From Gammaproteobacteria bacterium (lineage in GTDB: Bacteria > Pseudomonadota > Gammaproteobacteria > UBA6429 > Thiohalophilaceae): DNA of 27,565 nucleotides. Made by a program: the position numbers and the translations under genes. Shown here piece after piece: positions 3,202 through 20,438 of this stretch (position 1 is the first letter of the stretch; each line of letters begins with the position of its first letter). The DNA lies in NCBI GenBank assembly GCA_029882235.1, contig JAOULB010000001.1:1-27565 (forward strand), given 5' to 3'. Below the pieces are notes generated by a model. The model worked only from the letters and a program-made list of their open reading frames with translations. It was not told where the DNA came from and ran no database searches.

Positions 3202-3468
3202 ATGTCTGAGAGTCAACAACGTGAGATGCACTGGCAAAAAACCCGTAGCCTCATGATTATCCACTTGTGTATCTGGTTCTTCTTTTCATTCGTCGTCCAC
3301 TGGTTTGCTAAAGATCTGAACGCCATAAACTTTATTGGTTTTCCTTTAGGGTTTTATATGGCTGCTCAGGGTTCTTTGTTTGCTTTCGTCGTACAGCTTT
3401 TTATCTTCGTGAAGCAACAGGACAAGATTGACCGCGAATTCGGCATGGCCGAAGACGACAACGCATAA
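3202..3468 (+). CDS. DUF4212 small membrane subunit of a solute:sodium symporter
   Basis: Two hydrophobic segments and the motif GFPLGFYMAAQGS. SD AGGGGAG. Directly upstream of the SSS gene. Confidence 0.9.
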   Translation: MSESQQREMHWQKTRSLMIIHLCIWFFFSFVVHWFAKDLNAINFIGFPLGFYMAAQGSLFAFVVQLFIFVKQQDKIDREFGMAEDDNA

Positions 3469-3480: not shown

Positions 3481-5310
3481 ATGAGCTTAAAACTTAAAGG
3501 CGATTTTATTGATAATCTGCCGAAGATCTATGGCCTCTATACTGGTGGCTTCCTGATCTTTGTATTACTGATGGCATTACTTGAAAAGAATGGTGTCGGT
3601 GCTGACACTATCGGTATTCTGTTCGTCGGTTTCACTATTGTTATTTACGCCGCCATCGGCTGGTTATCCAGAACCATGCAGGTGGATGCCTACTATGTCG
3701 CAGGACGACAGGTCCCACCCGTTTTTAATGGCATGGCAACGGCCGCTGACTGGATGTCCGGTGCTTCGTTTGTTGCCATGGCCGGTGGTATTTATATGGG
3801 TGGCCACGCCTATCTTGCCTTTGTTGTTGGCTGGACCGGCGGCTATGTTCTGGTTGCTGTTTTGATGGCACCTTACCTGCGTAAGTTTGGTTGTTATACC
3901 GTACCGGATTTTGTCGGCACACGTTATGGTGGCAACACCGCACGCCTGTTAGCCGTACTGGTGCTGGTGATTGCTTCCTTTACTTATGTGACCGCACAGA
4001 TTAATGCAACGGGTACAATCGCCTCGCGTGCATTACAAATTCCATTTGAAATGGGAGTCTGGTTTGGTCTACTCGGTATTCTACTCTGCTCCATGCTCGG
4101 CGGCATGCGCGCGGTAACCTGGACCCAGGTCGCACAATACATTGTCTTGATCATCGCTTACATCGTGCCGGTGATATGGATGTCCAATAAACAGGGCTTC
4201 GGTATCATGCCACAGCTGGCTTATGGTGATGCCGTTGCTCGCATCACTGAACTGGAAGCGACTGTAGGTCTGGGTACACTGGCCAAGGTTGCCGCACCTG
4301 TCGACTTCCCGGGATTGAAGGCACTGGCTACCGCGCATAATGCGCCGGGTGATGGCATGGCGGCATGGAAGTTTGTCACACTGGCTGCGTGTATGATGCT
4401 GGGTACGGCTTCTTTGCCACATATCCTGATGCGTTACTTCACCACAAAGTCAGTCCGTGCTGCACGTAACTCGGTAGCATGGTCACTGTTCTTTATTTTC
4501 CTGCTGTATTTCACCGCACCCGCGCTGGCAACCTTTACCAAGTTGCAGATTCTGGATCCGAGTCTGGCGACCAGTATCATCGGTAAGTCGATCGAAAGCG
4601 TGATGGCGCTGGAATGGATACAGAAGTGGCATGAAGTGAAAATGGTCGCCATCGTCGATGCCAATCGCGACGGTATCCTGCAACTCAATGAGTTCTTTAT
4701 GAGAGCGGATATTGTAGTACTGGCAACGCCGGAAATCGCAGGGCTACCCTATGTCATCTCGGGTCTGGTTGCTGCCGGTGGTATGGCGGCGGCCATGTCG
4801 ACTGCCGACGGTTTGCTGCTGGCGATTGCCAATGCCCTGTCGCATGACCTGTACTACAAAGTGATCGATCCTAAGGCGGAAACCAAAAAACGTCTGATCG
4901 TCGCCCGTGTACTGCTCATTGTAATTGGTGGTCTGGGTGCCTTTGTGGCCAGTATGAAGCTCACCGGTATCCTCGGTGCGGTGGCCTGGGCCTTCTGTTT
5001 CGCCATGTCCGGTCTGTTCTTCCCACTGGTGCTGGGCGTCTGGTGGAAACGGGCTAACCGTGCCGGGGCGATTGCCGGTATGGCTGTCGGTCTGGGTGTC
5101 GGCACCTGGTACCTGTATATGGTTAAATGGGGCGGCATGACGCCCTGGATTGGTCTGGATCACCTGCGCTTTGGTATTGTCGGTGCTTCAGCTAGTCTGA
5201 TTGCCATGGTAGTGGTCTCCTTGATGACCAAGGAACCGGATGCTGAAACACAGGCCATGGTTGATGAAATCCGTATACCGAAAGGTGAAACGGTACTCGG
5301 TAGTCATTAA
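3481..5310 (+). CDS. Sodium:solute symporter (SSS/SLC5), ActP-like; substrate likely a monocarboxylate but not proven
   Basis: YYVAGR, NGMATAADWMS, LRKFGCYTVPDFVGTRY, GTASLPHILMRYFT, Na-site AAAMSTADG, GVWWKRAN; many TM segments. Confidence 0.92.
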   Translation: MSLKLKGDFIDNLPKIYGLYTGGFLIFVLLMALLEKNGVGADTIGILFVGFTIVIYAAIGWLSRTMQVDAYYVAGRQVPPVFNGMATAADWMSGASFVAMAGGIYMGGHAYLAFVVGWTGGYVLVAVLMAPYLRKFGCYTVPDFVGTRYGGNTARLLAVLVLVIASFTYVTAQINATGTIASRALQIPFEMGVWFGLLGILLCSMLGGMRAVTWTQVAQYIVLIIAYIVPVIWMSNKQGFGIMPQLAYGDAVARITELEATVGLGTLAKVAAPVDFPGLKALATAHNAPGDGMAAWKFVTLAACMMLGTASLPHILMRYFTTKSVRAARNSVAWSLFFIFLLYFTAPALATFTKLQILDPSLATSIIGKSIESVMALEWIQKWHEVKMVAIVDANRDGILQLNEFFMRADIVVLATPEIAGLPYVISGLVAAGGMAAAMSTADGLLLAIANALSHDLYYKVIDPKAETKKRLIVARVLLIVIGGLGAFVASMKLTGILGAVAWAFCFAMSGLFFPLVLGVWWKRANRAGAIAGMAVGLGVGTWYLYMVKWGGMTPWIGLDHLRFGIVGASASLIAMVVVSLMTKEPDAETQAMVDEIRIPKGETVLGSH

Positions 5311-5323: not shown

Positions 5324-5362
5324 AAACCGGGGCGCTAAATAAAATGGCGTCCCGGTTTTTTT
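5324..5362 (+). terminator. Rho-independent terminator, possibly bidirectional
   Basis: AAACCGGGGCGC / GCGTCCCGGTTT stem (12 bp with one G-U pair) and a T7 run at 5356-5362, just after the symporter stop. The left flank is A-rich. Confidence 0.85.
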
Positions 5363-5418
5363 ATTGCTGCATATAACGTTAAAATCAAATCTATAATCAA
5401 ACTGGCTGGATAATAACA

Positions 5419-5775
5419 ATGACTGACGCCTTTCCCATCTGGGTTCTTGCTATCGACTATATTCTCGGTGTGGTGATGTGGACACTGGTTGGACGCTTTG
5501 GCATGCAACTATTTTTACCTAAAGAAAGTACTTTTTTCTTTTCACGCTTTTTTATTCGTGTAACCGATCCATTAATCAAATTATTCAAACCCATTACGCC
5601 AGCATTTCTAGTCGAGGCCATGGTGCCACTCTATGTTGCGTGGTTCTTTTATATTACACGCTTTTATCTTATGCCATGGCTACTCGGTTATTCAGTGATG
5701 GGAATGTTATCCTTCCCACTGGAAAGTGAAATAACTCAGGCAATACGTTACTTATTTGGTTCATCCGCCCCATAA
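5419..5775 (+). CDS. YggT-like small membrane protein
   Basis: Hydrophobic 118 aa. FFIRVTDPLIKLFKPITP resembles the YggT TEP/TDP motif. Confidence 0.65.
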   Translation: MTDAFPIWVLAIDYILGVVMWTLVGRFGMQLFLPKESTFFFSRFFIRVTDPLIKLFKPITPAFLVEAMVPLYVAWFFYITRFYLMPWLLGYSVMGMLSFPLESEITQAIRYLFGSSAP

Positions 5776-5795: not shown

Positions 5796-7892
5796 ATGCA
5801 GCCCCCAAAACATACACCGCTGATTGCATTACCCACCCTGATCCTGGATCTTGAAACTACCGGACTAGATGTAAAAAATGATCGTGTTATACAGATAGGT
5901 GCCATTAGCACACAGGGCGCCAATCAACATTATTTAGCTGTTATTGATCAACTGATCAACCCCGGCATCGCCATCCCACAAAGTTCAACTGAAATTCATA
6001 ATATCGATGATACCGATGTTGCTCGAGCGCCTTCATTCAAAGATGTTGCTACACACTTAATTGCACAAATGAAAAATCGTGTCATTATTGGTCATCATAT
6101 TGCTTTTGATCTTGCCATTCTAAGACATGAGTTTGCGCGTAATAAACTGGTCTGGCATGAACCCCTCAGTCTTGATGTTGGTATGCTGGCTAGTGCGTTA
6201 CAACCGAATTTACCTGATGTCTCACTCGAAACAGTCACGACTATGCTGGGTGTTCGTATTCGCAATCGACACAGTGCCATGGGTGATTGCAAAGCAGCAA
6301 CAGAATGCTGGCAACACCTGCTGCCCCTCTTACAGAAAAAAAATATTCGCACCCTGGGTGAAGCCATCACACTGGCAAACAGTCGTCATGATTTAATTAC
6401 CCGCCAGATTGAATCTGGCTGGACAGAAGTACCTGCAGGGCTGGTAAAAAAACAATCGAGCAATAGTAAACGCATTGATAGTTATGTGTATGAACACCGC
6501 CTTGCCGATGTAATGACTCAACCACCTGTATTTGTAAATCCCAAAGACAGTTTGCGTCAGGCGACGCAGACCATGAATACCCATAAACTGGGTAGTCTGC
6601 TTGTTGGCACTGCTGACAAACCGCCACTCGGTATTCTGACTGAACGCGATGTTCTAAAACAGGTGGCTGAAAACCAGCATGACCTGGACAACACGCCCAT
6701 TGAGATCATCATGACCAGCCCGGTTGAATCTATGCATCAGGATGAACTGCTCTATCGTGCGCTGGGACGTATGGATCGACTCAACATCGCCCACCTGTGT
6801 GTACACAACGATGCCGGCTTACCAGTGGGCATCATCTCGCAACGTAACCTGCTGCAATATCGTGCGCGTGGGCCCAATATGCTCAGTGATGCCATGGATA
6901 CGGCAAACAGTGTGCACGAACTGGCAAGTGCCTATGGACGTCTTACCGATGTCGCCCGCCAATTACTGGATGAAGAACTGGCTGGCGATGAAATCGCTCA
7001 ACTAATCTCCACAGAGCTACAGGCTCTCACTCATCGTGCGACCGAGCTGGCACTGGCGCGCATGAAAGAACAGGGCAAAGGAGAACCACCTGCCGACTGG
7101 TGTGCACTGGTACTCGGTTCTGCAGGTCGTGGTGAAAGTCTACTCAGCGCCGATCAGGATAATGCCCTGATCCATACCGGCTGCGATGTTGATGATGACT
7201 GGTTTGCGCAGTTTGCTACTTACCTGTCCGAAATACTGGATCAGTCTGGCCTGGCTTTATGTAGCGGTGGCGTGATGGCAATAAATAAACAGTGGCGCGG
7301 AAATCTTGCTGACTGGAACCAGCAACTTTCAAACTGGATTCAACGAGCTCAGCCTGAAGACTTACTCAATGTCGATATTTTTTTCGATTTATTACCCGTA
7401 GCGGGACATCATTCACTGGCAAACGAACTACATCAACAGGCCGTTGCCCTTGCAGAAAAGAACCATCCCTTTATTAATTTACTGGCGCAATCAGTCCTGT
7501 CTGTTGCGCCTCAGTTTGGTTTTATGGGACGACTGAAGCTAAGCGAAGGGCGTATTGATTTAAAACGTCATGGTCTGTTACCGCTGGTCAGTTTTGCACG
7601 CACAGTTGCTCTGCGAATGGGGTCAAATTCAAGATCAACATCACAACGATTACGCGATGCGATTCAAGCCGGGCTTGTTGCAGAAAGTGATGCGGTGCGA
7701 TTAATTGAGCTCGAAAAATTATTGCTGATGCTTATATTGAAACAACAAATAAAGGATCGCAAAGCAGGGCTCGCTGCAGGAACAAAAGTAGCAATTAAAT
7801 TACTAGCAAAACGAGACCAAAAACATTTAAAACATGAGTTGCATCATCTGGATACCATGGTCAATCAGATATTCAGCTTTATTACACATTAA
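5796..7892 (+). CDS. Fusion of DEDDh 3'-5' exonuclease, CBS pair, DUF294 nucleotidyltransferase and DUF294_C
   Basis: ExoI LDLETTGLD, ExoII GHHIAFD, ExoIII HSAMGD. CBS motifs PLGILTERDVL and PVGIISQRNLL. Pol-beta-type LGSAGRGE...DQDN. C-terminal IDLKRHGLLP...STSQRL. Confidence 0.9.
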   Translation: MQPPKHTPLIALPTLILDLETTGLDVKNDRVIQIGAISTQGANQHYLAVIDQLINPGIAIPQSSTEIHNIDDTDVARAPSFKDVATHLIAQMKNRVIIGHHIAFDLAILRHEFARNKLVWHEPLSLDVGMLASALQPNLPDVSLETVTTMLGVRIRNRHSAMGDCKAATECWQHLLPLLQKKNIRTLGEAITLANSRHDLITRQIESGWTEVPAGLVKKQSSNSKRIDSYVYEHRLADVMTQPPVFVNPKDSLRQATQTMNTHKLGSLLVGTADKPPLGILTERDVLKQVAENQHDLDNTPIEIIMTSPVESMHQDELLYRALGRMDRLNIAHLCVHNDAGLPVGIISQRNLLQYRARGPNMLSDAMDTANSVHELASAYGRLTDVARQLLDEELAGDEIAQLISTELQALTHRATELALARMKEQGKGEPPADWCALVLGSAGRGESLLSADQDNALIHTGCDVDDDWFAQFATYLSEILDQSGLALCSGGVMAINKQWRGNLADWNQQLSNWIQRAQPEDLLNVDIFFDLLPVAGHHSLANELHQQAVALAEKNHPFINLLAQSVLSVAPQFGFMGRLKLSEGRIDLKRHGLLPLVSFARTVALRMGSNSRSTSQRLRDAIQAGLVAESDAVRLIELEKLLLMLILKQQIKDRKAGLAAGTKVAIKLLAKRDQKHLKHELHHLDTMVNQIFSFITH

Positions 7893-7894: not shown

Positions 7895-8560
7895 CTATAA
7901 ATCCAGCACCTTCTCTACATCTAGAAATTTGCGCAAGTCCTGTCTGATCTCCTGCCAGCGAAAACGTACCGAGTTCAGCACAATATCTTCATCCATCTGT
8001 TTGTACTCATCGACCACAGGGGCCCACTCGACCAGAGCCGTGGGGCTATGTGAAAAGGCCTGCTCATCGTCTGTCACCGCGGACCAGTCGGTCATGGCAA
8101 GACGCTGTCGGACATGATCGGCGCTCTGTGAAAACTTTTCGCCCGCATCACTGGGTATACCCGTCTCTTGTAGAATTTCATCAAGCAACTGCTGCATGAT
8201 CTCGACAATGTTGCCCTTGTCTGACTGTGGATGCCGTTGCAATAATCCACCCGCATAAACAGTCAGATCAGACAAACAGGCCAACCAGACCTGCCACTTG
8301 GCAATATTGATGGAGTTAACAAAGAAATCATCATCAAACAATTCTGGATAACGCATACCCGCGCGGGTACGCAAGTAACCATACAGCGATGTCTGTGCAA
8401 CAAAACTGGCACGTGTCTGGATAAATTCTTTCAGTCCCGCTCGGTCGGTAATGGCTTGCTGGCGTCGTAGACGAGAAAAATTAAAATATTCTCGCAGCAG
8501 CGACCATAGTGCAGCCGGGTTGAGCAGGACATCAATGAGGCGTCGAGGCGTCGAGTCCAT
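7895..8560 (-). CDS. Hypothetical protein, 221 aa
   Basis: Long helical-looking ORF filling the gap downstream of chpC, with a distinctive segment SLYGYLRTRAG. No family confidently recognised. Confidence 0.75.
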   Translation of the reverse strand: MDSTPRRLIDVLLNPAALWSLLREYFNFSRLRRQQAITDRAGLKEFIQTRASFVAQTSLYGYLRTRAGMRYPELFDDDFFVNSINIAKWQVWLACLSDLTVYAGGLLQRHPQSDKGNIVEIMQQLLDEILQETGIPSDAGEKFSQSADHVRQRLAMTDWSAVTDDEQAFSHSPTALVEWAPVVDEYKQMDEDIVLNSVRFRWQEIRQDLRKFLDVEKVLDL

Positions 8561-8628: not shown

Positions 8629-9123
8629 CTATAGCAACAAACTCTTTTCCAGCTCATCAATGTCGGGAATGGCTGCTGGTTCGCCATTGACCAGCACGTG
8701 CTCTTTGATAAAACGGCCATTAGTATCACCGCTTGAGTTTGGAATAATATTTTTTTCCTGCACAACCTGAAGATGTGGAATACCCTGCGTCAGCATACCG
8801 ATGTAGGGCAGCTTGGAATTACCATTGAGTGTATTCAGAATGGCGATTCGACTCCCCTTGCGTGCTCTGGTACTACTTTCTAACCCGGCGGCTATTTCAA
8901 AAGAGATGACTGGTACACGATAATCACGCCAGCCGATTCGGCCGATGACCCATTCTTGTGAATCATTGCCTGATTCTGGTTCCTGATAACCAATCACTTC
9001 TGCAATAGAGGCATTTGGTAAGAGTAGAATTTCATTGGTGATAGGGATCATCAGGCAATGGATGGTCGTCAAACGACCTTCCGGGAGCATGCCTTTACCT
9101 TTTAGATACGTAATGTCTGCCAT
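8629..9123 (-). CDS. chpC: CheW-like adaptor ChpC
   Basis: LLLPNASIAEVI, GRIGWRDYRVPVISFE and RIAILNTL; position after chpB. Confidence 0.88.
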   Translation of the reverse strand: MADITYLKGKGMLPEGRLTTIHCLMIPITNEILLLPNASIAEVIGYQEPESGNDSQEWVIGRIGWRDYRVPVISFEIAAGLESSTRARKGSRIAILNTLNGNSKLPYIGMLTQGIPHLQVVQEKNIIPNSSGDTNGRFIKEHVLVNGEPAAIPDIDELEKSLLL

Positions 9124-10143
9124 TTATGTTTCCAGCTCTGTTGTCATCAGATGATCGTTCAGGTGTTTCGCCAGTATCTCTGGTGGTGCCGAATATTCTA
9201 CTACACCCGTCGCTCTAACATTATCCGGCATACTGCTAATTACGCAACTAGCCGCATCCTGTGCCCAGATTTTTCCACCGTACTGGTGCATGACCTGACA
9301 GCCCTTTTTGCCGTCATCACACATGCCACTAAGAATAATCGCACCCGCCCGTTCTTTATAGCGCCTGGCAATAGTGCTCACAACCTGATCAATACAGGGT
9401 GTGTACGGACTTTCATATTCCAGCGGCGATAATTGTACCGCACCAATAGGATTGATACTGATCTCTTCTGTCACTGGAGCCAGTATGACCTGACCATGGT
9501 GGAGTACATGACCATCCACAGCGGGCAATACTTCAAAATCTGTCGCCTGATTGAGTTGCTCCGCCAGCAGGGTGACAAAGTTAGCCCCCAAATGTTGCAC
9601 TAGAATAAAGGCAACGGGTAGGTCTTCGGGCAGGTTCTTGAGGAATTTTTTAATCGCCTCCGGACCACCCAGGGAAGAACCGATGACCCAGACATGTTTG
9701 GCCAGTTCGCCGTTGAGTCGTTTTTCAATATAACCGGCAGGGATTTCTTCAACCAGACTTTCATAACTGCGGTCAAACTGGGTTTTATCGGTTATGCCGC
9801 GGCCAGTGAGCGCTGCAATTTTGCGCATTAACTTACCATACCAGCGTGCCAGTACAGCGGGTTCGTTTAAAGTAAGTGCAGTGACATCATTAAACAGGAT
9901 GGGAATGTCGATCTCTTCAATCAGGTCATCGACCAGCTGTTCATCGTGATCATCATCATGCATATCAAGCAACATGACGTCGACCTTCAGACGTTTGACC
10001 TTATCGATAAAGGCATGGCTGAGGGGATCATTAATCACTACGCTCAGGCCATTGGCCTCCATGGCCAGACGCAAGTAAGCACGCTGCGAATGCTTACTGG
10101 AAGCAATCGCGATATTAATATTATTGAATTCCTTTTTAGACAT
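9124..10143 (-). CDS. chpB: CheB-like methylesterase ChpB with an atypical receiver domain
   Basis: Triad motifs GSSLGGP, VQHL and SGMCDDG; YTPCID; AQDAASCVISSMP. Its stop codon abuts the chpC ATG. Confidence 0.9.
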   Translation of the reverse strand: MSKKEFNNINIAIASSKHSQRAYLRLAMEANGLSVVINDPLSHAFIDKVKRLKVDVMLLDMHDDDHDEQLVDDLIEEIDIPILFNDVTALTLNEPAVLARWYGKLMRKIAALTGRGITDKTQFDRSYESLVEEIPAGYIEKRLNGELAKHVWVIGSSLGGPEAIKKFLKNLPEDLPVAFILVQHLGANFVTLLAEQLNQATDFEVLPAVDGHVLHHGQVILAPVTEEISINPIGAVQLSPLEYESPYTPCIDQVVSTIARRYKERAGAIILSGMCDDGKKGCQVMHQYGGKIWAQDAASCVISSMPDNVRATGVVEYSAPPEILAKHLNDHLMTTELET

Positions 10144-10237
10144 GTTCCAGTCGTTATTTAATACGTCAGATGAACGGGCTTACATTATGCCAAAATTAAC
10201 CAAAACACATTCGGCCTGTTCACAAAAAAATAAACCG

Positions 10238-13200
10238 TCAGGTAGGCTGCAATAGTCCCTGAATATGTTCGAGTAACTCAGCTTCGTTGTAGGGTTTGCC
10301 CAGATAGAAATTCACACCGATAGACATAGCACGATCGCGGTGCTTCTGACCGGTACGAGACGTGATCATGATAATCGGAATGTGTTTTAACTGATCATCA
10401 TTGCGAATATTCGTCGCCAGCTCAAAACCATCCATACGTGGCATCTCGACGTCGAGGAGAATCACATCAGGGTGCACTTCCTGCAATTGCGATAGCGCAT
10501 CGACACCATCTTTCGCCGAAGTTGAACGATAGTCGTTGCGTTCCAGCAACCGGGTGGTCACTTTACGCACGGTAATCGAGTCATCCACCACCATAACCAG
10601 TGGCTTCTCAGCAACTGGCTGTTCAATAACAGCTTCAACAGGTTCAGCTGGATACAATTCAGCAGTCTGAGCAACACGACGAACGAGTACACCCAGGTCA
10701 ATAATCAGCACGACACTACCGTCACCCATAATGGTGGCACCAGAAATACCCTGCATGGTACTCAGCTGTGCTCCGACGGGTTTGACCACGACTTCACGAC
10801 TGCCAATCAGGTTATCAACCTGGATTGCCGCACGGAACTCACCACTGCGTACAATCAGTAAAGGTATTTTGCCACGGTCACGTGGAATATAGCGCTTGCT
10901 GATGCCCATGGTTTCCCCCAGATGGATGAAGGGGTAGTCCTGACCAACCCAGTGATAGACTGGATTCTCAGCGGCATAGATTTCTTCCAGTTGTGTGGTA
11001 TCAACGCGTTCGACACCTTCAACACTCAATAATGGGATAGCATAGGTGTCTTCACTCACATTCACCATCAGCGCACGCGTCACGGACAGCGTCAGCGGCA
11101 GACTAACGGTAAACATCGTACCTACGCCCTGCTCGGTATTAATGTTTAGAATACCGCCAAGCTGTTTGATCTCACTATTAACCACATCCATACCTACGCC
11201 GCGACCAGAAATCTGGGTCACTTCATCGGCAGTACTAAAGCCGGATTCCATAATCATTTCCAGCAAGGTCTCTTTAGTGACATTCGCACCAGGCTTGATC
11301 ATGCCCTTGGCAATTGCCTTGCTCTGAATCGCATCAAGATCAATACCCTGACCATCATCTGTCAGCTTGATGACAATATCGGCACCTTCACGACTAATGC
11401 TCAGATCAATCTGACCGGTTTCTTCTTTGCCGGTATTGCGGCGAGTTTCTGAATCTTCCAGACCATGGGCTACGGCATTACGCAGCATATGTTCGAGTGC
11501 CGGCAGCATGCGTTCAAGCACGGTACGATCCATTTCACTATCGGCACCATGTAGATGCAACTCGGCAAACTTACCAAGCTCTTCTGCAGTCTGACGAACA
11601 ATACGACGCAGGCGACTGGTCTGGCTTGAGAAGGGCACCATGCGGGTACGCATCAGGCCTTCCTGCAGTTCGGTATTCACACGTGACTGCTGAACTAATA
11701 AGGTTTCTGACTCACGTGTCAGGTTACCCAGAATGCCACGTAAGCTATCAAGGTCATTCAAACTTTCCAGCATACCGCGAGAAAGTTGCTGCATCTGGGT
11801 AAAGCGGTCAAATTCAAGTGGATCAAAATCTTCCTGCGTAGCACTCAGTGATTCCTCGGCACGGTATTGAATCTGTGCTTCTGCTTCCATTTCAAATTTA
11901 CGCAGCTGATCACGTAAACGACTGACGGTTTCATCAAGCTCGGTCAGGTTATATCGGAAGGCATTGGTCTGTTGCTCCATGCGTGAGCGATAAATACTTA
12001 CCTCTCCAGCGAAATTAACCAGGTTATCCAGCAGATCAGAACGCACGCGCACCAGCTCACGTTTTTCCTTTTTCTCTGGCATGGTCTGCTGCGGAGATGT
12101 GAGCTGTTGACTCTTAATTGGCTTCAGGCTGGTTAAGGGCACCACATTATCGGATGTCAGCGTTGGTACATTTTCTTCTGCAACAATAGGCTCGCTACTT
12201 TCAGCAACAGGCTCAAGCTGAATGTCTTCAACATCCATGAAAGAATCATCAGGGATGTGCTGAGCATGAATTGCTTCTTCCTCTTCCTCATCATCGAAAG
12301 AAACTTCATGTCCAATAATGCCCGCAACGACCGCAATCAGGTCTTTCGCAGGTGTCAGCTTCTGTCTGTTTTTTAGCTGATCCAGTAAATGCACCAGTCT
12401 ATCCTGTGTGCGCAGCATGACATCATGAATCTCTTCACTGGGTTCAAGCTGTCCTTCAGCAATCGCAGTCAGCATCGATTCAATACTATGACTTAAATCA
12501 CCAATCGCGGTCACACCCGCCATGCGTGCCCCACCTTTCAGGGTGTGCAATTGTCGCTGCAAGGCTTCAAGGTGATCGGCATTGGCCAAATCGTCACCCC
12601 AGCGATGCAGGACCTGATCGCTGTCTTCCAGAATTTCGCTACCTTCTTCAAGGAAGATTTCCAGCAGTTCATCGTCATAGCTGTCATCAGCCTGTAGGCT
12701 TTGTGATGAACTCTGACTAAGATCAAACTGACTACTTGGTTCATTACTGGTTTCAACCTGCAGCCTCTGCAGACCTGAATCAGTAGGTTCAATATTGACG
12801 AGACTCCCACCAAGTGAAACTTCCATATCCTGAATTCCCTGCAATAGATCATCATGTTCAGGAATCGGGATGCCAGGATTATCAAGCATATCAACAGTCT
12901 GTTGAACAAAGGACATGCTTTGCTCAACAAGTTCGAGCAACTCATCCGTAACATCATTGCTTTCAGCAGCAAACACATCGGCAACTTTTTCCAGTCGGCT
13001 GCATATTGATGCCAGTCCAGGCAAACCTGCTGTGCGTGAGCTGCCGGTTAAGGTATGCAATGCACGAATTAACTTTTGATTTGCGGATTTATCAGTGTCT
13101 GCACGCCAGTCATCTACATACTCTCTCAGCGCATTCAGGTGATTGGCCGCCTCTTTACGATAGATATCACGTAAGACTTCGTCTATATCGGGTATCGTCG

Positions 13201-16200
13201 GAGCGCTTTCCTTAAATGGAGTATCACCCTTATCAACTGGTGGCGCAGCTATTTCGATTGACGCATTAATGGGTGCACCCTGACTAATCGCATCTGCCTG
13301 TTCCATCAGATTGAAGATTTCCTGGCTTGCACCTTCACCTGTTTTAAACATATCAAACAGACTGGGTAGAGTCAGACGGGCCTGTTCCAGCAGATTGAAG
13401 ATTGTTTGATCAGCTTCGATGGTATGGTCAATCACGCGGTTGAGCATATTCTCAAAGGCCCAGGCAAACTCACCCACTTCACTGGCACCGACGAGTCGAC
13501 CACTTCCTTTTAAGGTATGGAATGAACGGCGCAATTCTTTCAGTATTGCCTCATCAGAGGGATCTGACTGCCATGCAGGCAAACGTACTGAAATATTACC
13601 AAACTCTTCTTCTGCTTCTTCAAGAAATATTTCGATAATTTCATTATCGATTTCCTCTGGCACATCTTTTTTCTTTATGACAGGTGCAGGTGTTGGAGTA
13701 AGCTTTGCTGCTGTATTCAAAGGAATAACATTGCTTGCTGGAAGCACTGGTTCTTCTGGCAGAACTTCCATTAAGGTATCAATACCAAACTTCAAGCTAC
13801 TTTTTATTTCTTCATTAAATTCGGTTTCGCCCTTGTTGACCGTTTTAATCAGGGATGCCATATCATTGGCAACCTTGGCCACTTCTTCCTGCCCACTTAG
13901 CTTGGCCTGCTTCTTGATGTTGGTCACTTCTTTACGAAATGCCCTGGTCAGGTCTTTATCAGAAACATCTTCAGACCAGGCTTCAAGACGATCATTCAGT
14001 ACCGGAATGTCCTGAACCGATAAGGATGGTGCTGGACGGACTACCTCTGGCTCAGTTAGTTTGTCTTTTTCAACCAGGTCGATAACACTTTCATCGAACT
14101 CAATTTCCTGAGTGACATTATTAAAATCAAACTCTGGCTCTTCAGTTACAGCGATTTCGTTGCTGGACTCAAGCTCCATTTCACCAAAGTCGATCTCCAT
14201 GGTGTTACGAGAGAGTTCTGAGGGTTCAGCGACCAGCTCTATTTCTTCGTGGAAATCGAGGTCGCTGGTATCAAGTTCGATTTCCTGAGTGGGGTTTTCT
14301 TCTGGTTCACTCAGACTAAGTTCTTTTTCAAGCTCGGCAGTGAGTTCATCCTCGAAGCCCTGACCATCTCCAATATCGAGCTGGCTGGCATCGAATTCTA
14401 TTTCCTGGGTATCACTTGTTGTGCCGTTAATATCATCCAGCGAGATACCTTTTGCTTCTAGCTCATTTTCAAAATCTTCCAGAGAAATTTCAGCCGTCGA
14501 CATGTCTGCAGCATCGAGTTCAATTTCTCCCGTTTCCGTACCGGGTGCACCGATATCAATCATGGTGTCGTCATCTTCGCTTAAATCAGATGACTCCAAC
14601 ATAACATCGTTAATGGCTAGATCATTCTGAGTCTCATCATCTTGCTGTTGTGCATCGATGACGCCACTGCTGAGTTCCTGAATATGATCACCAAAACCAA
14701 TCTGTGCCAGACGTTGTTCGGCCACTTCAAGAATGGCATTTGGATTGCCCCACTGACCCGCAACGGAGTCCATATAATATTCAATACTACTGAGGGCATC
14801 GGCAAGGGCGTCGGTTGAAGCCGGATCGGGGGCACGTGTGGCATTAATCATTTCCTGCTGCACATAGGCGCGGCAGGTATCGACCAGTTGTGCGGGTCGT
14901 TCCAGATGTAAAATTTCAAAACTGCCACGAATCTGATCCAGCCAGTCAGGCACATCACTAATTAAACTAAGATTGCGGGGTGCTTCAAGGAACTGGCTCA
15001 TAGCCTCTTTGACTTTGCCCATATTATCACGGGCTTCGTTCATGACTGTTTTTAACAGCGCCTGTTGTTCTGCGTTTTTCAGTTTTTCTTCATTTACTGC
15101 AATACTGGTGGAAGACTCACTACTTGAAATCGCAGCCGTCGGCCCATGTAACATGGATTCAATCGATAGCAACTCATGTGCAACATCCATTAACTGGTTT
15201 TCGTCAACCGGTTCACGGCCTTCAGCAAAGGCTCTTAGCTGATCAACCTGTTCCATGACCGTCTGACGCTGTTTACCAAAGCCCAGCATACCCAGTGTAT
15301 CCGCTGTTTGATTCAGACTTTCGCACAGGGGAGTTAAACTTTTCGGATCTCGTTCATCCGAGCGAACGAATACATCCAGGTTGTCTTTAACTTGAACCAG
15401 GTTTTCCAGTAGTACAGCAGATACGGTTTGTAGTAGCTCTGCATTGGGGCCGGTTAGATCGGCACGGGCACGTTCGAGCGTGGCCTCATCGGGCAGAGCA
15501 TCGGCCAGTTTAAATGCCTCTTTGAGTTTATGAACACGTTCACCTTCGGTTGAAGAACTGGCGACATAGTATAAAAGATTTTTTTCAAGTTCCTGCGGGG
15601 GTTCTCTGGTCAGTACTGACTCACCCTGATCAATAATCTTTTTAATCTGGCGATCAAGCTGACCCATTAGTAATTTCACTGCAACACTGGCTTCGATTCC
15701 ACCTTCACGTAAGGCTTCAATCACACCACTGGCAGACCAGAGTACGCGGTTAACTTCCTGGTCATTTGCTGCATAACGAAGCTTTTCAATTACTTTATCA
15801 AGCTTGCGTAAACCACCTTTGCTATCACGGTCGCGGTACCAGTCGAGCAGGCCAAGGTGATAAGTATGACGCAGTTTTCTCGCCAGGCTGGGTAAGTCTT
15901 CATCGCTGTTATGTTCATCAGTGTCTGGAACAGTAACATCAAGGTCAGGGGTAAATAAGGCACTTTCAGTGAGTAATGGCGCCTTACGCGCTGCACGTAA
16001 ATCATTCAGCAGAGGTAACAGCACCATCGGAATATCTTTATGGCCAGACTGCAGACGTTCAAGATAATCTGGCAACTGCCACATCGCACGCATCATGACT
16101 TCATAGATGTCATCACGCCCTTCAATTTCATTTGTTGCCAGACTCTGAGTTAGATTCTCTAGCTCTTCAGATAACATGGCCGCGCCATAGAGTTCAACCA

Positions 16201-16378
16201 TTTGCAGGGTACCGCGAACCTGATGCAAATAATTCGCAACCTGCTGTAATTGTGTACCGCTATCGGGGGCTTCTACATGCAGCTCTAGTGCCGTACGTGC
16301 CTGCTTTAAGGTCTCATCAATTTCTGATTTGACCCATTGCAGTGTATTCAGATCGACCTGACTATTATCCGCAATCAT
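10238..16378 (-). CDS. chpA: ChpA hybrid CheA-like kinase (multiple Hpt/pseudo-Hpt, HATPase, CheW, REC)
   Basis: Hpt motifs FHTLKGSG, LHTLTGSS and LHTLKGGA; N-terminal LHQVRGTL; EHMLRNAVAHG; GFSTA..SGRGVGMDVV; ISGATIMGDG; REC VVDDS..LLDVEMPRMDG. Confidence 0.96.
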   Translation of the reverse strand: MIADNSQVDLNTLQWVKSEIDETLKQARTALELHVEAPDSGTQLQQVANYLHQVRGTLQMVELYGAAMLSEELENLTQSLATNEIEGRDDIYEVMMRAMWQLPDYLERLQSGHKDIPMVLLPLLNDLRAARKAPLLTESALFTPDLDVTVPDTDEHNSDEDLPSLARKLRHTYHLGLLDWYRDRDSKGGLRKLDKVIEKLRYAANDQEVNRVLWSASGVIEALREGGIEASVAVKLLMGQLDRQIKKIIDQGESVLTREPPQELEKNLLYYVASSSTEGERVHKLKEAFKLADALPDEATLERARADLTGPNAELLQTVSAVLLENLVQVKDNLDVFVRSDERDPKSLTPLCESLNQTADTLGMLGFGKQRQTVMEQVDQLRAFAEGREPVDENQLMDVAHELLSIESMLHGPTAAISSSESSTSIAVNEEKLKNAEQQALLKTVMNEARDNMGKVKEAMSQFLEAPRNLSLISDVPDWLDQIRGSFEILHLERPAQLVDTCRAYVQQEMINATRAPDPASTDALADALSSIEYYMDSVAGQWGNPNAILEVAEQRLAQIGFGDHIQELSSGVIDAQQQDDETQNDLAINDVMLESSDLSEDDDTMIDIGAPGTETGEIELDAADMSTAEISLEDFENELEAKGISLDDINGTTSDTQEIEFDASQLDIGDGQGFEDELTAELEKELSLSEPEENPTQEIELDTSDLDFHEEIELVAEPSELSRNTMEIDFGEMELESSNEIAVTEEPEFDFNNVTQEIEFDESVIDLVEKDKLTEPEVVRPAPSLSVQDIPVLNDRLEAWSEDVSDKDLTRAFRKEVTNIKKQAKLSGQEEVAKVANDMASLIKTVNKGETEFNEEIKSSLKFGIDTLMEVLPEEPVLPASNVIPLNTAAKLTPTPAPVIKKKDVPEEIDNEIIEIFLEEAEEEFGNISVRLPAWQSDPSDEAILKELRRSFHTLKGSGRLVGASEVGEFAWAFENMLNRVIDHTIEADQTIFNLLEQARLTLPSLFDMFKTGEGASQEIFNLMEQADAISQGAPINASIEIAAPPVDKGDTPFKESAPTIPDIDEVLRDIYRKEAANHLNALREYVDDWRADTDKSANQKLIRALHTLTGSSRTAGLPGLASICSRLEKVADVFAAESNDVTDELLELVEQSMSFVQQTVDMLDNPGIPIPEHDDLLQGIQDMEVSLGGSLVNIEPTDSGLQRLQVETSNEPSSQFDLSQSSSQSLQADDSYDDELLEIFLEEGSEILEDSDQVLHRWGDDLANADHLEALQRQLHTLKGGARMAGVTAIGDLSHSIESMLTAIAEGQLEPSEEIHDVMLRTQDRLVHLLDQLKNRQKLTPAKDLIAVVAGIIGHEVSFDDEEEEEAIHAQHIPDDSFMDVEDIQLEPVAESSEPIVAEENVPTLTSDNVVPLTSLKPIKSQQLTSPQQTMPEKKEKRELVRVRSDLLDNLVNFAGEVSIYRSRMEQQTNAFRYNLTELDETVSRLRDQLRKFEMEAEAQIQYRAEESLSATQEDFDPLEFDRFTQMQQLSRGMLESLNDLDSLRGILGNLTRESETLLVQQSRVNTELQEGLMRTRMVPFSSQTSRLRRIVRQTAEELGKFAELHLHGADSEMDRTVLERMLPALEHMLRNAVAHGLEDSETRRNTGKEETGQIDLSISREGADIVIKLTDDGQGIDLDAIQSKAIAKGMIKPGANVTKETLLEMIMESGFSTADEVTQISGRGVGMDVVNSEIKQLGGILNINTEQGVGTMFTVSLPLTLSVTRALMVNVSEDTYAIPLLSVEGVERVDTTQLEEIYAAENPVYHWVGQDYPFIHLGETMGISKRYIPRDRGKIPLLIVRSGEFRAAIQVDNLIGSREVVVKPVGAQLSTMQGISGATIMGDGSVVLIIDLGVLVRRVAQTAELYPAEPVEAVIEQPVAEKPLVMVVDDSITVRKVTTRLLERNDYRSTSAKDGVDALSQLQEVHPDVILLDVEMPRMDGFELATNIRNDDQLKHIPIIMITSRTGQKHRDRAMSIGVNFYLGKPYNEAELLEHIQGLLQPT
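14090..14535 (-). repeat. Degenerate internal repeat in the acidic chpA linker (x-E-I-[EDS]-[FL]-[DEGV], about 7 copies)
   Basis: Peptides GEIELD, AEISLE, QEIEFD, QEIELD, EEIELV, MEIDFG and QEIEFD. Near-identical 18-mers at 14096-14113, 14273-14290 and 14393-14410. Confidence 0.75.
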
Positions 16379-17274
16379 GATTGCTCACCTGCTGGTTCAT
16401 TAATGCGACGAAAGGCCAGTGTCGAAGGAAAATTCACGGTTTCGATTAATGGGTTACTCCAGTTAATAATTTCACCCGCACCCAACACCAGTAATCCACC
16501 TGGACGTAAATGTTTCACCAGGTGTTCAAGTATCGCAATGCGGCGTTCGCGTTTGAAGTAGATCAACAGGTTCTGGCAATAGATGATATCCATTTGCTCA
16601 GGGCGGGCATGCGCCAGCTTCATGACATTAAACTGGGCAAAGCTCACTTTCTGTCTTAACTCAGGTTTAACTTCTAATATATCTGCATCGAGCCGGTTGA
16701 TATAACGTTCTGCAAACTCTGCCGGGACATTGGTCGCACGATTATTACGATACTGACCACGTAAGGCCTTCGCTAATGAGCCAAGACTAATATCCGTTGC
16801 AGTTATTAAGAAGTTACGATCGAGACCTTCACGCTCAACATAATCATCCAGCAGCATGGCCAGGCTATAGGGCTCTTCACCCGTCGCACAACCGACACTC
16901 CAGATACGCAGGGCATCATCATTTGTGGCCAGATACTTTGGCAAGAAGGAGTCACTAATGAGTCGTAATGAAAACTCATCACGGAAGAAACGTGTTTCAT
17001 GTACCGTCAGGCGATCGACCAGCACTTCCCATTCCATATCGCCTTTTTTGCCCGACATGAGATACTGATAATATGTCTCATAGTCCTGACATTTCAGTTC
17101 ACGCATACGTGCACTGAGGCTGGTCAGCAAAAAGGATTTGCGCTCAGGCGGAAGACAGATACCCGTCCGTTTTTCCAGCAACTCGACCCACTGGCCGAAC
17201 TGATCGTCATTCATCGCCACCAATGGCGTTAAATGCCAGGACCGGTTATCCCCATTGTTTTGCGATATGGCCAT
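16375..17274 (-). CDS. pilK: CheR-like methyltransferase PilK
   Basis: HETRFFRD, IWSVGCATGEEPYS, DIIYCQNLLIYF and LRPGG. ATGA overlap with chpA. Confidence 0.92.
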   Translation of the reverse strand: MAISQNNGDNRSWHLTPLVAMNDDQFGQWVELLEKRTGICLPPERKSFLLTSLSARMRELKCQDYETYYQYLMSGKKGDMEWEVLVDRLTVHETRFFRDEFSLRLISDSFLPKYLATNDDALRIWSVGCATGEEPYSLAMLLDDYVEREGLDRNFLITATDISLGSLAKALRGQYRNNRATNVPAEFAERYINRLDADILEVKPELRQKVSFAQFNVMKLAHARPEQMDIIYCQNLLIYFKRERRIAILEHLVKHLRPGGLLVLGAGEIINWSNPLIETVNFPSTLAFRRINEPAGEQS

Positions 17275-17300
17275 TCCATTCTCGCTCTTGGTCAGACTGC

Positions 17301-19340
17301 CTAGTTAGGCAGTTTAAAACCAGCGACTGAATGACGAAGTTCATTCGCCAGCTCAGCCAGGTTACCAATCGAAGCAGCGGTTTCATTGGTACCCGCTGAG
17401 GTCTGAGTCGTGATTTCCTGAATCACATTCATAGTCTCAGAAATATTGGTTGCTGCTCGGGCCTGCTGCGATGCAGACTCTGAAATGTTTCGAATCAGAT
17501 CCGCAAGGTGAGAAGACACCGATTCAATCGACTCAAGGGCTTCACCCGCGTTTTGCGCCAGTTGCGCTCCCGCGACAACACCCGAGGTACTTTCTTCCAT
17601 CGAGGACACCGCCTCTTTAGTATCAGACTGAATCCCTTTCACCAGCGCCTCAATCTGTCGAGTCGCGTCACCGGAACGTTCCGCCAGTCGCTGAACTTCG
17701 TCCGCTACCACCGCGAAGCCTCGTCCGGCTTCACCGGCCATGGCCGCCTGAATCGCCGCGTTCAAGGCCAGAATGTTGGTTTGTTCGGCAATGTCATTAA
17801 TCAGCTCAACGATGTCACCAATTTCCTGTGAGCTTTCACCCAGACGTTTAATACGTTTTGAGGTTTCCTGAATCTGTTCACGAATGGTATCCATACCATG
17901 AATCGTTTTCTGCACCGCTTCCGCGCCTTTACCCGCGATGGTTACCGACTTGTTCGCTTCGTCGGCCAGCTCACTCGCGTGAGAAGAAACCGCTTCAATA
18001 GAAATCGCCATTTCGTTAATCGCACTACTGGCATCAGTAATCTGCTGCGCCTGATGGTCAGAAGCTTCAGCAAGATGCATCGCTGTCGCCTGCGTCTGTT
18101 GCGCCGCTGAGGATACCTGTTGAGTTGTATCGTTAATCGCCGCAACCAGATTACGTAACGCGTCGATCGCATAGTTGATCGAGTCCGCGATCGCGCCGGT
18201 AATATCTTCTGTTACTGTTGCTGTTACCGTCAGGTCACCATCCGCGAGGTCACCCATTTCGTCCAGCAGTCGCAAAATCGCTTCCTGGTTTCGTGTGTTG
18301 GTGTTTTCAGTCATCTGACGTTGATGCTCAGTCTGATTCAGACGGCGACGTGAGTCATTCCAGTAGAGATAACCCAGCAGAACAACCAGCCCCAGAGATA
18401 ACACACCAAACAACTTCGCCAGTACGGGCATTAAACGACCTTCAGTTGCACCCTCATAAGCAGAAGATACCGCTGAGATCTGGTTCAGGAGTAATTCACT
18501 CACACCCAGAATTTCTTCGGCCGCACCAGACACCTGGAACATTTCTGGTGAACGCTCAAGAATTGAACCGACCTGGTTTCGAATATCAGCAAACTGTTTG
18601 GATACTTCAAGCAGTTTTGCGCGTGCGCCCGGTGCTGTAATCTTGGTAATACTTAACCGCGAGTTACCACGCAACATATCCTGAATCACGCGACCGAACA
18701 GCGCCGCATCTCGACCGAATCGGTCAGCCGCAGTTACCGCACCTTCACCACCATCCAGTACACGACTCACGTTACTGGAGATACGTTGCATCAACATCAG
18801 CTGACGCGTGGCGATATAAACCTGATCGGGCTTGGCACCCTGTTGTGCCATACTGGCCACAACTTCGTCTGACAAAGCCAGAAGAGTAGGAATCTGTTCA
18901 TTAATACCAGTAATGTAAGAACGCATGTTTGCCACAACTTCACGACGCTTGAGAATAATGTCGACGTTCTCACTATAGCTCTTCCATAGACCATACAATT
19001 TAGTTAATGGCGCCATTTCACCTGAAATTTCGCCCGGCGTTTCACGTTTCTGGTAGTTCAGAATTTCTTCAAACTGATCACGCGAACGCTGTAATAATGG
19101 GAAGGCTTTAATATCACCACGTGCAGCCTGTGAGGCCAGCTTGGCAATTTCCTGAGATAAAACACTTTGCTCACCGATTTTGGAGATATAAGTTTTATCA
19201 TTACTATCCTGTGCAGCGCTCAGACCGAAATAAACCGCCATCGCGACCACTGACACAACTAACAGGATGATCACCAGGACCATTGTGCGTCCATAGGATG
19301 TCGTTGCGTTACCTAACAGACCATCAGTTGAAAACTTCAT
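17301..19340 (-). CDS. pilJ: Methyl-accepting chemotaxis protein PilJ
   Basis: Two TM segments, a periplasmic domain, a HAMP-like region ([17 protein letters not shown]) and the MCP tip [38 protein letters not shown]. Confidence 0.95.
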
Positions 19341-19439
19341 TGTTTTGCTCCTCGTACTTTATATAAGCAACGGCACTCGACCGACTTACCCTGATTACTC
19401 TTCACCCATTATGTCGTCAAACATATATTTTTTTTATCC

Positions 19440-19994: not shown

Positions 19995-19998
19995 CGTC

Positions 19999-20364
19999 CT
20001 AGCCTCCAATTATGGTCTTAATCTTACTGACCAGGTCATCCTCAGATACAGGTTTGGAGATATAGTCTTTTGCACCCTGGCGTAGACCCCAAACACGATC
20101 GGTTTCCTGATCCTTGGTTGTTACGATAATAATAGGAATTGATGAGGTCTCCGGATCTTTAGTTAATGCACGCGTGGCCTGAAAGCCATTCATGCCCGGC
20201 ATAACAACATCCATCAATACCAAATCTGGTTTTTCCTTTTTAGTCATCGCAATACCGTCTTCGGCATTATCCGCTGAAAGCACCTCAAAACTGTTCTTTT
20301 CAAGAATGGTTTTAAAGACATGCACTTCAGTGGGCGAATCATCAATAATTAATATCCGTGCCAT
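19999..20364 (-). CDS. pilH: Single-domain response regulator PilH
   Basis: ILIIDDSPTE, LMDVVMPGMNGFQATR, TTKDQETDRVWGLRQGA. Confidence 0.95.
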   Translation of the reverse strand: MARILIIDDSPTEVHVFKTILEKNSFEVLSADNAEDGIAMTKKEKPDLVLMDVVMPGMNGFQATRALTKDPETSSIPIIIVTTKDQETDRVWGLRQGAKDYISKPVSEDDLVSKIKTIIGG

Positions 20365-20438
20365 GTGATTATTCTCCCACCTGCACAGTCATATCTGTGT
20401 TGTTATTGTTATGTTGATTTCGTTTCATTGACTTAACC

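Follow-up and report, generated by a model that had tools for sequence, protein, structure and literature searches.

A fused DEDDh exonuclease, CBS pair and DUF294 nucleotidyltransferase encoded in a VC_2705-type symporter module of an uncultured gammaproteobacterium

Described split pairs and related nucleotidyltransferases

DUF294/COG2905 proteins and their partner exonucleases are present in about a quarter of the gammaproteobacterial genomes sampled. In the described pairs, PP_0354/PP_0353 of P. putida KT2440 and PA3233/PA3232 of P. aeruginosa, the two proteins are encoded by two genes with the transferase gene first, and the pairs belong to the MxtR/ErdR (CrbS/R) regulon, the short-chain-carboxylate regulon of Pseudomonas that has also been studied in Vibrio. 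The split pair adjoins symporters of the DUF4212/SSS or ActP type, and the order stated in the initial annotation, namely an actP-like symporter gene followed by a cNMP-CBS-DUF294 gene and then a separate exonuclease gene, is indeed the usual one in relatives. The cNMP domain (PF00027; 34 bits in locus L062 and 19 bits in locus L052) is located at the N-terminus of the transferase protein, where the fused form analyzed here has its exonuclease. The separate exonucleases retain the DxE...(D/E)...HxxxxD motif.

Mutants of the split pair have transporter-like phenotypes (10.1101/072470; PMC9927547). Deletion of pp_0353, which encodes the exonuclease, and deletion of actP-I each impair growth of P. 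putida on pyruvate (PMC9927547). Genes labelled COG2905 "RNAse T domain" show cofitness with the DUF4212/SSS transporter when lactate or D-alanine is used (10.1101/072470). These published genetics suggest that the net effect on symporter-dependent growth is positive. Price et al. have probably already recorded phenotypes for the fused family, under the label "COG2905 (RNAse T domain protein)"; Sama_1525 and Psest_0349 are probably the fused form, as judged from the wording and the locus-tag numbering of that study. In the literature that we found on the DUF294 family, which includes papers of 2022 and 2026, no activity, product or target was described for any member.

The other described relatives are GlnE (glutamine synthetase adenylyltransferase), GlnD (PII uridylyltransferase/UMP-removing enzyme) and the Legionella AMPylase DrrA/SidM. 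Their Pol-beta core, G-x-x-G-R-x-E...S/A-D-x-D signature and helical substrate-binding domain are common to the fusion protein, and the metabolite-gated logic of a writer plus an eraser in one protein would be shared as well. A single chain that combines a transferase with a hydrolytic removing domain has its precedent in GlnD. However, GlnD carries an HD domain and ACT sensors and acts on PII, whereas the fusion protein has no HD domain and uses CBS domains; the fusion protein also lacks the second, phosphorolytic transferase-like domain of GlnE; and the genomic context of the fusion protein is transport, not nitrogen control.

The fusion gene and its protein

The window, that is, the whole stretch of DNA analyzed, comprises 27,565 nucleotides. 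Its features relevant to this study are as follows.

3202..3468, + strand: DUF4212 small subunit of a Na+/solute symporter (88 aa, two hydrophobic segments; PF13937, 2.3e-27)
3481..5310, + strand: large subunit of a VC_2705-family sodium/solute symporter (609 aa; TIGR03648, 9.6e-204)
5324..5368, + strand: terminator-like GC-rich hairpin with a 14-bp stem and then a T-run, between the symporter gene and orf118
5419..5775, + strand: orf118, small YggT-like membrane protein (weak PF02325 match, 0.0017; hydrophobic segments)
5796..7892, + strand: fusion gene for a DEDDh exonuclease, CBS pair, DUF294 and DUF294_C (698 aa)
5838..6302, + strand: DnaQ-like DEDDh 3'-5' exonuclease domain (aa 15-169; PF00929 (RNase_T), 1e-26)
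6504..6860, + strand: CBS domain pair (aa about 237-355; PF00571 in two stretches, 3.6e-18)
6939..7358, + strand: DUF294 Pol-beta-type nucleotidyltransferase core (aa 382-521; PF03445, 5.8e-37)
7470..7853, + strand: DUF294_C helical substrate-binding domain of the KNTase_C clan (aa 559-686; PF10335, 1.8e-24)
7895..8560, - strand: orf221, conserved all-helical protein (221 aa; AF2 pLDDT 77)

The open reading frame of the fusion gene starts with the ATG at 5796 and runs uninterrupted on the + strand to a stop codon that ends at 7892. The initial annotation had read DEDDh motifs, a CBS pair and a nucleotidyltransferase motif in one polypeptide that lacks a cNMP-binding domain, and this was confirmed by Pfam search and by alignment of 28 full-length homologues with 37–66% identity. 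No PF00027 match was found in the fusion protein at E<=0.01, and HD, ACT and RNA-binding domains were likewise absent from the Pfam search result. The exonuclease catalytic set consists of D18, E20, D105, H159 and D164 (D-x-E, D, H-x4-D), and the DEDDh residues are invariant or at least 90% conserved among the 28 homologues. The nucleotidyltransferase signature reads G441-S442...G444-R445-x-E447...D453-Q454-D455; G441, S442, G444, R445, E447, D453 and D455 are invariant in the same sample, as is a third acidic residue, D531, and D527 is at least 90% conserved. Judging from this alignment, both catalytic centres are under purifying selection. In addition, R30, W120, D127, R185 and W209 are family-specific invariant residues outside the classical exonuclease motifs. 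We rejected the reading that two genes have been joined artificially, by misassembly or a frameshift, because the frame is uninterrupted, full-length homologues are collinear and the AF2 model is that of a confident single chain (pLDDT 87.4, pTM 0.77). The gene encodes one cytoplasmic polypeptide, in which the exonuclease is joined via a CBS ligand-sensing pair to a nucleotidyltransferase of the GlnE/GlnD/DrrA type.

When the AF2 model was used for fold searches, the exonuclease domain matched the PolC exonuclease (Z 23.9), Pol III epsilon (Z 20.9-21.2; for 1j53, Z 20.9 and rmsd 1.6 Å over 163 residues) and ExoX and TREX1 (Z 18-19). The fold (Z 18-24, rmsd 1.6-2.9 Å) and the five catalytic residues are common to DnaQ/Pol III epsilon, PolC, ExoX, TREX1 and the fusion protein, and as far as sequence and model indicate, the domain resembles an ordinary proofreading exonuclease that acts on nucleic acids. 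Unlike exonucleases of the DnaQ/PolC type, however, the fusion protein is without polymerase or helicase and carries a sensor and a protein-AMPylase-like transferase instead. The CBS pair has the fold of the AMP-bound CBS pair 2rif (Z 18.5).

The DUF294 and DUF294_C domains together matched the N-domain of GlnE (1v4a; Z 25.8, 320 residues), the C-domain of GlnE (3k7d; Z 23.8) and DrrA bound to Rab8a (6yx5, chain B; Z 23.8). The best fold alignments of this whole module, which extend over 304-320 residues, were with protein AMPylases only, and no PAP/CCA-type enzyme was present among the fold matches listed for the transferase half. A PDB sequence search gave exonuclease and CBS relatives only, with no match for residues 380-698, and the kinship to GlnE and DrrA was reached by the fold search instead. 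For GlnD, kinship is borne out at the sequence level because the DUF294 HMM also matches the GlnD of the same genome, which is located on another contig. The relation of DUF294 to GlnD and GlnE that had been initially put forward thus holds.

Family and gene neighbourhood

More than 2,900 90%-identity clusters match the fusion protein at E<=0.001, and 1,304 50%-identity clusters match it at E<=1e-30, a recurrence far beyond chance. All of the best 120 of the more than 2,900 clusters contain the four domains PF00929, PF00571, PF03445 and PF10335 in about 700 aa, and they cover 92-100% of the fusion protein collinearly, with the exception of one truncated entry. Database names of these relatives include [quoted passage not shown] and [quoted passage not shown], and their architecture does not differ from that of the 698-aa protein. 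The architecture, initially supposed not to be unique, is in fact very common and already annotated, and the fusion protein is an ordinary member of a large, catalogued proteobacterial family without any new architecture. Similar fusions in Alphaproteobacteria, which the initial annotation had also mentioned, were found in Limibacillus, Rhodobiaceae and Dongia. Fused homologues are 48-66% identical to the fusion protein over 99-100% of the length; as the nearest relative is merely 66-67% identical, the protein is a new lineage-level member of the family, from the MAG of an uncultured gammaproteobacterium. The value of the locus lies in representing the family cleanly and intact, with all five genes of the module described below.

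The fused and split forms are about 30% identical in the transferase module (residues 225-690), and their exonucleases are of the same family. In a tree of the CBS-transferase part, the fused forms constitute a clade separate from the split form (cNMP-CBS-DUF294), and CBS-DUF294 forms of about 480 aa, with an exonuclease gene directly upstream, are nested within the fused clade. The initial annotation had the exonuclease sitting where the cNMP domain usually lies. The N-terminal site is correct, but the tree argues against a local swap, since the fused clade is an old one and branches apart from the more frequent split form. At the fusion locus there is no separate downstream exonuclease gene, the next gene being orf221 on the opposite strand. 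The two enzymes occur either as one fused protein or as the products of adjacent genes that often overlap (a Rosetta-stone link), and fusion or tight adjacency recurs in several proteobacterial classes and in two distinct clades; of the genetic evidence gathered here, the fused form indicates most clearly that transferase and exonuclease work together.

The survey of domain architectures and gene neighbourhoods proposed in the initial annotation was carried out, for the neighbourhoods, by genome searches and tblastn. The genes for DUF4212, the VC_2705-type symporter, orf118, the fusion protein and orf221 form a five-gene module that is conserved. In 9 of the 16 fused loci examined, the genes follow the order DUF4212-SSS-orf118-fusion or a divergent variant of this order, and the order DUF4212-SSS-small ORF-fusion agrees with the locus-tag numbering in Price et al. 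(10.1101/072470). On the other hand, no symporter was present within about 9 kb in 7 of the 16, and DUF4212 is missing altogether from one complete genome that carries a fused gene. Fused genes away from a symporter had no shared neighbour theme (aminotransferase twice, MscL, SulP, a glutamate-receptor-like channel, NicO and Usp). Among 300 genomes of the class, DUF4212 was found in 45/71 genomes with a DUF294 protein and in 23/229 without one, corresponding to an odds ratio of about 15 in a sample whose related genomes are not independent.

A carboxylate symporter had been noted beside the fusion gene, and this neighbour is real. However, it is not the ActP that was first named, but of the two-subunit DUF4212/VC_2705 type: the small subunit scored 88 bits against TIGR03647 (3.1e-25; cut-off 26) and the large subunit 678 bits against TIGR03648 (cut-off 321), whereas the ActP assignment was rejected with 109 bits against TIGR02711 (cut-off 1099) and 141 bits against PRK09395 (cut-off 750). 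Symporter homologues in syntenic loci are 84-91% identical. Fitness data for symporters of the VC_2705/DUF4212 type point to lactate and D-alanine. No acs gene is present in the 27,565-nucleotide window.

As for the two small proteins of the module, the nearest Atlas clusters of orf118 belong to the YGGT family (score 0.96), and the position of orf118 is kept in loci L001, L002, L047, L050, L082, L085, L086 and L088. The orf221 family comprises at least 1,590 clusters, all of which lack a Pfam domain, and orf221 accompanies DUF4212 even where the fusion gene lies elsewhere (genomes G255 and G386). No Pfam or NCBIfam family matched orf221, and no Foldseek match was obtained at E<=0.001; the best PDB fold (Z 7.2) is noise for a helical protein. 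The name "esterase" on some database records of orf221 is therefore unsupported. A 222-aa ORF upstream of the fusion gene in locus L083 is unrelated to orf221 (hhalign probability 0.2%). In split loci, the queries used yielded no homologues of orf118 and orf221.

Candidate functions of the fused protein

The best reading of these results, which we hold tentatively and at somewhat less than an even chance, is that the fusion protein acts, in a single chain, as a switch that reversibly nucleotidylylates the uptake system. We infer such a writer/eraser mechanism; its chemistry is plausible, and the fold evidence speaks in its favour. The transferase half would attach AMP or UMP to a protein that belongs to the uptake system or to its control, with the symporter subunits, orf118 and orf221 as candidate targets, and the exonuclease half would hydrolyse the phosphodiester of the nucleotidylated protein with release of 5'-NMP. 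The CBS pair would set the balance between writer and eraser by an adenosine-type metabolite, so that uptake of small carboxylates would track the energy state of the cell. The fused protein may thereby do in one chain the two-chain job of the split pair, without cyclic-nucleotide input. The candidate eraser, a DEDDh exonuclease, is without precedent in that role, and we know of no DEDDh enzyme that takes a nucleotide off a protein. The more specific claim that the DEDDh domain is a protein de-nucleotidylylase and not a nuclease in vivo, and that it forms a CBS-gated switch with the GlnE/DrrA-like AMPylase on the Na+/carboxylate symporter complex including orf118 and orf221, is possible but rather doubtful. 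If true, it would mean a new function for a very well-known fold, a new reaction for DEDDh enzymes and a new post-translational control of nutrient uptake that is widespread in Proteobacteria. The fused form offers a single soluble polypeptide that holds both candidate activities and the sensor and is open to assay and mutation.

The main rival, which we regard as unlikely, is that the transferase tails and the exonuclease trims RNA 3' ends, for example those of the hairpin-terminated symporter mRNA or of a small RNA, so that transcript stability would determine symporter expression. Nucleic-acid 3' ends are the normal substrates of DEDDh exonucleases, the closest sequence and fold relatives of the domain are PolC/epsilon/DinG exonucleases, RNase T and ERI1-type enzymes, and poly(A) and CCA-adding enzymes are textbook members of the Pol-beta-fold transferases. 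Moreover, mRNA degradation was speculated on by Henriquez et al., and a hairpin with a T-run, equivalent in position though diverged in sequence, is found directly 3' of the symporter gene in 9/9 related loci. Terminator hairpins behind transporter genes are, however, common and unspecific, and the transferase half has the fold and helical domain of the GlnE/DrrA/KNTase_C type, for which proteins or small molecules are the known substrates. The lack of a PAP/CCA-type enzyme among the fold matches listed, and of an RNA-binding domain in the Pfam search result, also argues against RNA tailing.

It is distinctly improbable that the transferase makes a linear or cyclic (oligo)nucleotide or a nucleotidylated metabolite, which the exonuclease would degrade and through which a receptor would control uptake. 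Such a protein, with sensor, synthase-like and phosphodiesterase-like domains in one chain, would resemble the GGDEF-EAL logic; both active sites are conserved, and DEDDh enzymes such as Orn are textbook cases of dinucleotide degradation. Nevertheless, no GlnE-type transferase is known to produce second messengers, the large helical DUF294_C suggests a macromolecular or bulky acceptor, and no receptor candidate was recognized in the module because orf118 and orf221 are without a known nucleotide-binding fold. That the exonuclease half serves as a generic nuclease in DNA/RNA housekeeping or repair, whose fusion or adjacency is meaningless for transport, fits the 7/16 fused loci that lie away from any symporter among neighbours without a common theme, but it is hardly credible given the recurrence of fusion or adjacency in several proteobacterial classes and two clades, the strong co-occurrence with DUF4212, the transporter phenotypes of published mutants and the separate DnaQ-like genes elsewhere in the genome (e.g., C159).

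As a correction to the initial annotation, the symporter genes are set apart from the orf118-fusion gene pair by the strong terminator-like hairpin, and co-expression of the two is therefore not required.

Domain composition and predicted structure of the fusion protein

The open reading frame, located in a MAG (87% complete, 475 contigs), coincided exactly with the initially annotated coordinates. Its features are as follows.

5796 (ATG) to a stop ending at 7892, + strand: fusion gene, 698 aa
Residues 15-169: RNase_T exonuclease (Pfam, E 1e-26)
From residue 237: two CBS domains (Pfam, E 3.6e-18)
Residues 382-521: DUF294 (Pfam, E 5.8e-37)
Residues 559-686: DUF294_C (Pfam, E 1.8e-24)

No cyclic-nucleotide-binding (cNMP) domain was detected by Pfam in the 698-aa protein, and among NCBIfam models only those of DnaQ/PolC-type exonucleases matched (residues 6-200), all far under their equivalog cut-offs. 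Across 28 aligned full-length homologues (37-66% identity), the DEDDh residues (D18, E20, D105, H159 and D164) and the transferase signature (G441-S442...G444-R445-x-E447...D453-Q454-D455, plus D531) were each invariant or at least 90% conserved; judged from this alignment, both active sites are under selection. The initial annotation of an exonuclease, a CBS pair and a nucleotidyltransferase with intact motifs in one polypeptide lacking a cNMP domain was thus borne out by Pfam and the alignment. As read from sequence, the chain comprises two intact catalytic centres and a predicted ligand sensor.

The AF2 model was confident (mean pLDDT 87.4, pTM 0.77). Its N-terminal domain matched the PolC exonuclease (Z 23.9) and Pol III epsilon (Z 20.9-21.2, rmsd 1.6-1.7 Å), and also superposed on the DinG exonuclease, ExoX and TREX1, while the CBS pair superposed on archaeal CBS pairs with AMP bound. 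The top match of the C-terminal 300-plus residues was the GlnE N-terminal domain (1v4a, Z 25.8, 320 residues), followed by the GlnE C-terminal adenylylation domain (3k7d, Z 23.8) and DrrA bound to Rab8a (6yx5, Z 23.8); all three are protein AMPylases. In the model, therefore, the transferase half has a protein-AMPylase fold. Furthermore, the DUF294 HMM scored this genome's GlnD over the Pfam cut-off, which, together with the GlnE fold matches, supports the kinship of DUF294 with GlnD/GlnE.

Spread of fused and split forms

A search of 5.8 billion proteins retrieved relatives in more than 2,900 90%-identity clusters at E ≤ 0.001, a lower bound, and 50%-identity representatives, searched exhaustively with HMMER, gave 1,304 clusters at E ≤ 1e-30. 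The best 120 clusters, all except one truncated entry, were ~700 aa with the same four Pfam domains. Fused relatives occurred in Gamma-, Beta- and Alphaproteobacteria (e.g. Acidiferrobacterales, Burkholderiales, Limibacillus and Rhodobiaceae), so that the architecture is not unique and has alphaproteobacterial examples, in line with the initial annotation. The nearest relative was merely 66-67% identical. Public annotation already covers the family (e.g. 'DNA polymerase-3 subunit epsilon/CBS domain-containing protein'). The architecture and genomic context are already in databases and papers; the gene joins a family that is well documented but whose biochemistry has yet to be solved. As an object it is unsurprising, but its fused form offers a good way into a question acknowledged to be open.

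Note that the 66-67% identical orthologue of the closest relative (G002:C51:1317-3316; L002:4775-5682) is interrupted by one in-frame TAA, with the match broken around residues 596 to 610; either a pseudogene or a MAG assembly error could explain this. In addition, a 4.9-kb contig assigned to the cyanobacterium Kaarinaea lacus includes both the fusion gene and orf221 (a 221-aa protein gene), at 60-65% identity (P0012 / P0302), and is probably a proteobacterial contaminant within that assembly.

In the window's own taxonomic family, the fused gene was found in 3 of 25 genomes and the split form in ~18. The latter comprises a 610-670-aa protein matching residues ~225-690 and, within 150-300 bp downstream, a 240-290-aa exonuclease gene matching residues 7-180, with start/stop overlap in some cases. 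Split proteins had an N-terminal cNMP-binding domain (34 bits in L062, 19 bits in L052), and the arrangement described initially for relatives, a cNMP-CBS-DUF294 gene and then a separate exonuclease gene, holds. Class-wide, 71 of 300 sampled genomes had a DUF294 protein (E ≤ 1e-30), fused in just 5 of the 71. The separate exonucleases retain catalytic motifs, motif II being D or E; specifically, Glu replaces Asp at Exo motif II in a sub-group (L052, L054, L055, L057, L061, L063, L064 and L066), whose motif, H-x-A-x-h-E, makes it a DEEDh variant.

In a FastTree of the CBS-transferase region (138 sequences, midpoint-rooted, topology read without branch support), the cNMP type formed its own clade, and ~480-aa CBS-DUF294 forms fell mostly into one sub-clade nested among fused forms. 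Because of this topology, the fusion is judged to be old and diverse, not a recent cNMP-domain replacement in the window's lineage. One ~480-aa form (L079) has an exonuclease gene immediately upstream; metagenome contigs may have yielded some of the short entries as truncated ORFs. Since fusion and adjacency recur in two clades, there is strong evidence that the exonuclease and transferase act together.

A conserved gene module joins the fusion gene and a carboxylate-type symporter

The genes and elements around the fusion gene are as follows.

3202-3468, + strand: DUF4212 small subunit, upstream of the fusion gene
3481-5310, + strand: VC_2705-family symporter (TIGR03648, 678 bits)
5324-5368: GC-rich 14-bp hairpin with T-run, between the symporter gene and orf118
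5419-5775, + strand: orf118, 118-aa YggT-like membrane protein; the fusion gene starts 20 nt further on
7895-8560, - strand: orf221, 221 aa, convergent, downstream of the fusion gene

A carboxylate-type symporter thus adjoins the fusion gene as annotated, but it is of VC_2705 type and not an ActP equivalog, scoring 109 of the 1099 bits which that model requires. By tblastn over 34 fetched loci, the order DUF4212-SSS (symporter)-orf118-fusion with convergent orf221 was found in the window, L001 (same contig as L048), L002, L047 and L050; L085 had this order with no orf221 match, and in L082, L086 and L088 orf118-SSS-DUF4212 faced orf221-fusion. The hairpin and T-run kept their position in 9 of 9 loci (the window, L001, L002, L047, L050, L082, L085, L086 and L088) despite diverged sequence, and may act in termination or attenuation, fixing how strongly the symporter is expressed relative to the downstream genes, or else stabilise a 3' end.

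Seven fused loci had no symporter within ~9 kb; DUF4212 was present elsewhere in four of five such genomes searched. A class I/II aminotransferase gene lay beside or near the fusion gene in two symporter-free loci (L003:9163-10377 and L049:6570-7895), which may be chance or a link with alanine/pyruvate metabolism. Among the 300 genomes, 45 had both DUF294 protein and DUF4212, 26 DUF294 alone, 23 DUF4212 alone and 206 neither (odds ratio ~15; as kin genomes are not independent, the association is weaker than the Fisher p-value implies). Where DUF294 occurs without DUF4212, its partner is probably an ActP-type symporter, as in L056, L058 and L059. In L063 (G162) and L064 (G067), a single DUF4212-SSS pair lies between two DUF294 paralogues (order: transferase, DUF4212, SSS, transferase, exonuclease), and in some genomes two sensor-transferases are therefore wired to the same symporter and exonuclease.

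In two genomes with the fusion gene elsewhere, orf221 was divergent next to the remote DUF4212 gene, and orf221 therefore travels with the symporter, not with the fusion gene. Its family has at least 1,590 clusters, none with a Pfam domain; it is predicted to be all-helical, with invariant Tyr/Arg-rich motifs (Y60, Y62, R64, R66 and G68), and no convincing fold match was found in the PDB. The 'esterase' label on some records was without visible support.

Published mutants of relatives show transporter-like phenotypes. In Shewanella, DUF4212 and its symporter are important for growth on D,L-lactate, and in P. stutzeri for growth on D-alanine (Price et al., 10.1101/072470). The COG2905 (RNAse T domain) genes of that study, cofit with this transporter, are probably fused orthologues because the tag spacing (1522, 1523, [1524], 1525) matches the window gene order; the authors speculated that the COG2905 protein is needed for symporter expression. 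The split pair of P. putida, pp_0354/pp_0353, forms an operon that ErdR targets directly, and deletion of pp_0353 or actP-I each impaired growth on pyruvate, not on acetate (PMC9927547). P. aeruginosa PA3232-PA3235 are co-induced on propionate (PMC9765439). A September 2026 preprint suggests protein modification, still calling the function unclear (10.64898/2026.09.07.749794), and our literature search turned up no biochemical work on a DUF294 protein.

Candidate mechanisms and other genes of the window

We tentatively favour a writer/eraser switch, in which the transferase half would nucleotidylylate an uptake-system protein, the DEDDh domain would hydrolyse the adduct, and the CBS pair would gate the balance. 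Such hydrolysis is chemically the same bond cleavage as 5'-NMP release from a 3' end. The main rival, RNA 3'-end tailing and trimming controlling transcript stability, agrees with what DEDDh enzymes usually act on, with the conserved hairpin and with the speculations of both author groups, but is at odds with the GlnE/DrrA-type fold, and we regard it as rather unlikely. Less likely than RNA tailing are a maker and breaker of a small nucleotide, which seems improbable, and an incidental housekeeping nuclease, which we consider very improbable; the remaining probability goes to some mechanism not yet imagined.

Elsewhere in the window, a Pil-Chp-like chemosensory cluster (8629-20843, - strand) encodes two receivers, CheW, a PilJ-type MCP, CheR, a 2,046-aa ChpA-like kinase (several Hpt domains, CheW and receiver domains), CheB and CheW; nothing about this cluster looks unusual or connected with the fusion gene. 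The genes at 21212-25680 (+ strand), encoding glutathione synthetase (gshB), an ApbE-family protein and two TonB C-terminal-domain proteins, also look ordinary.
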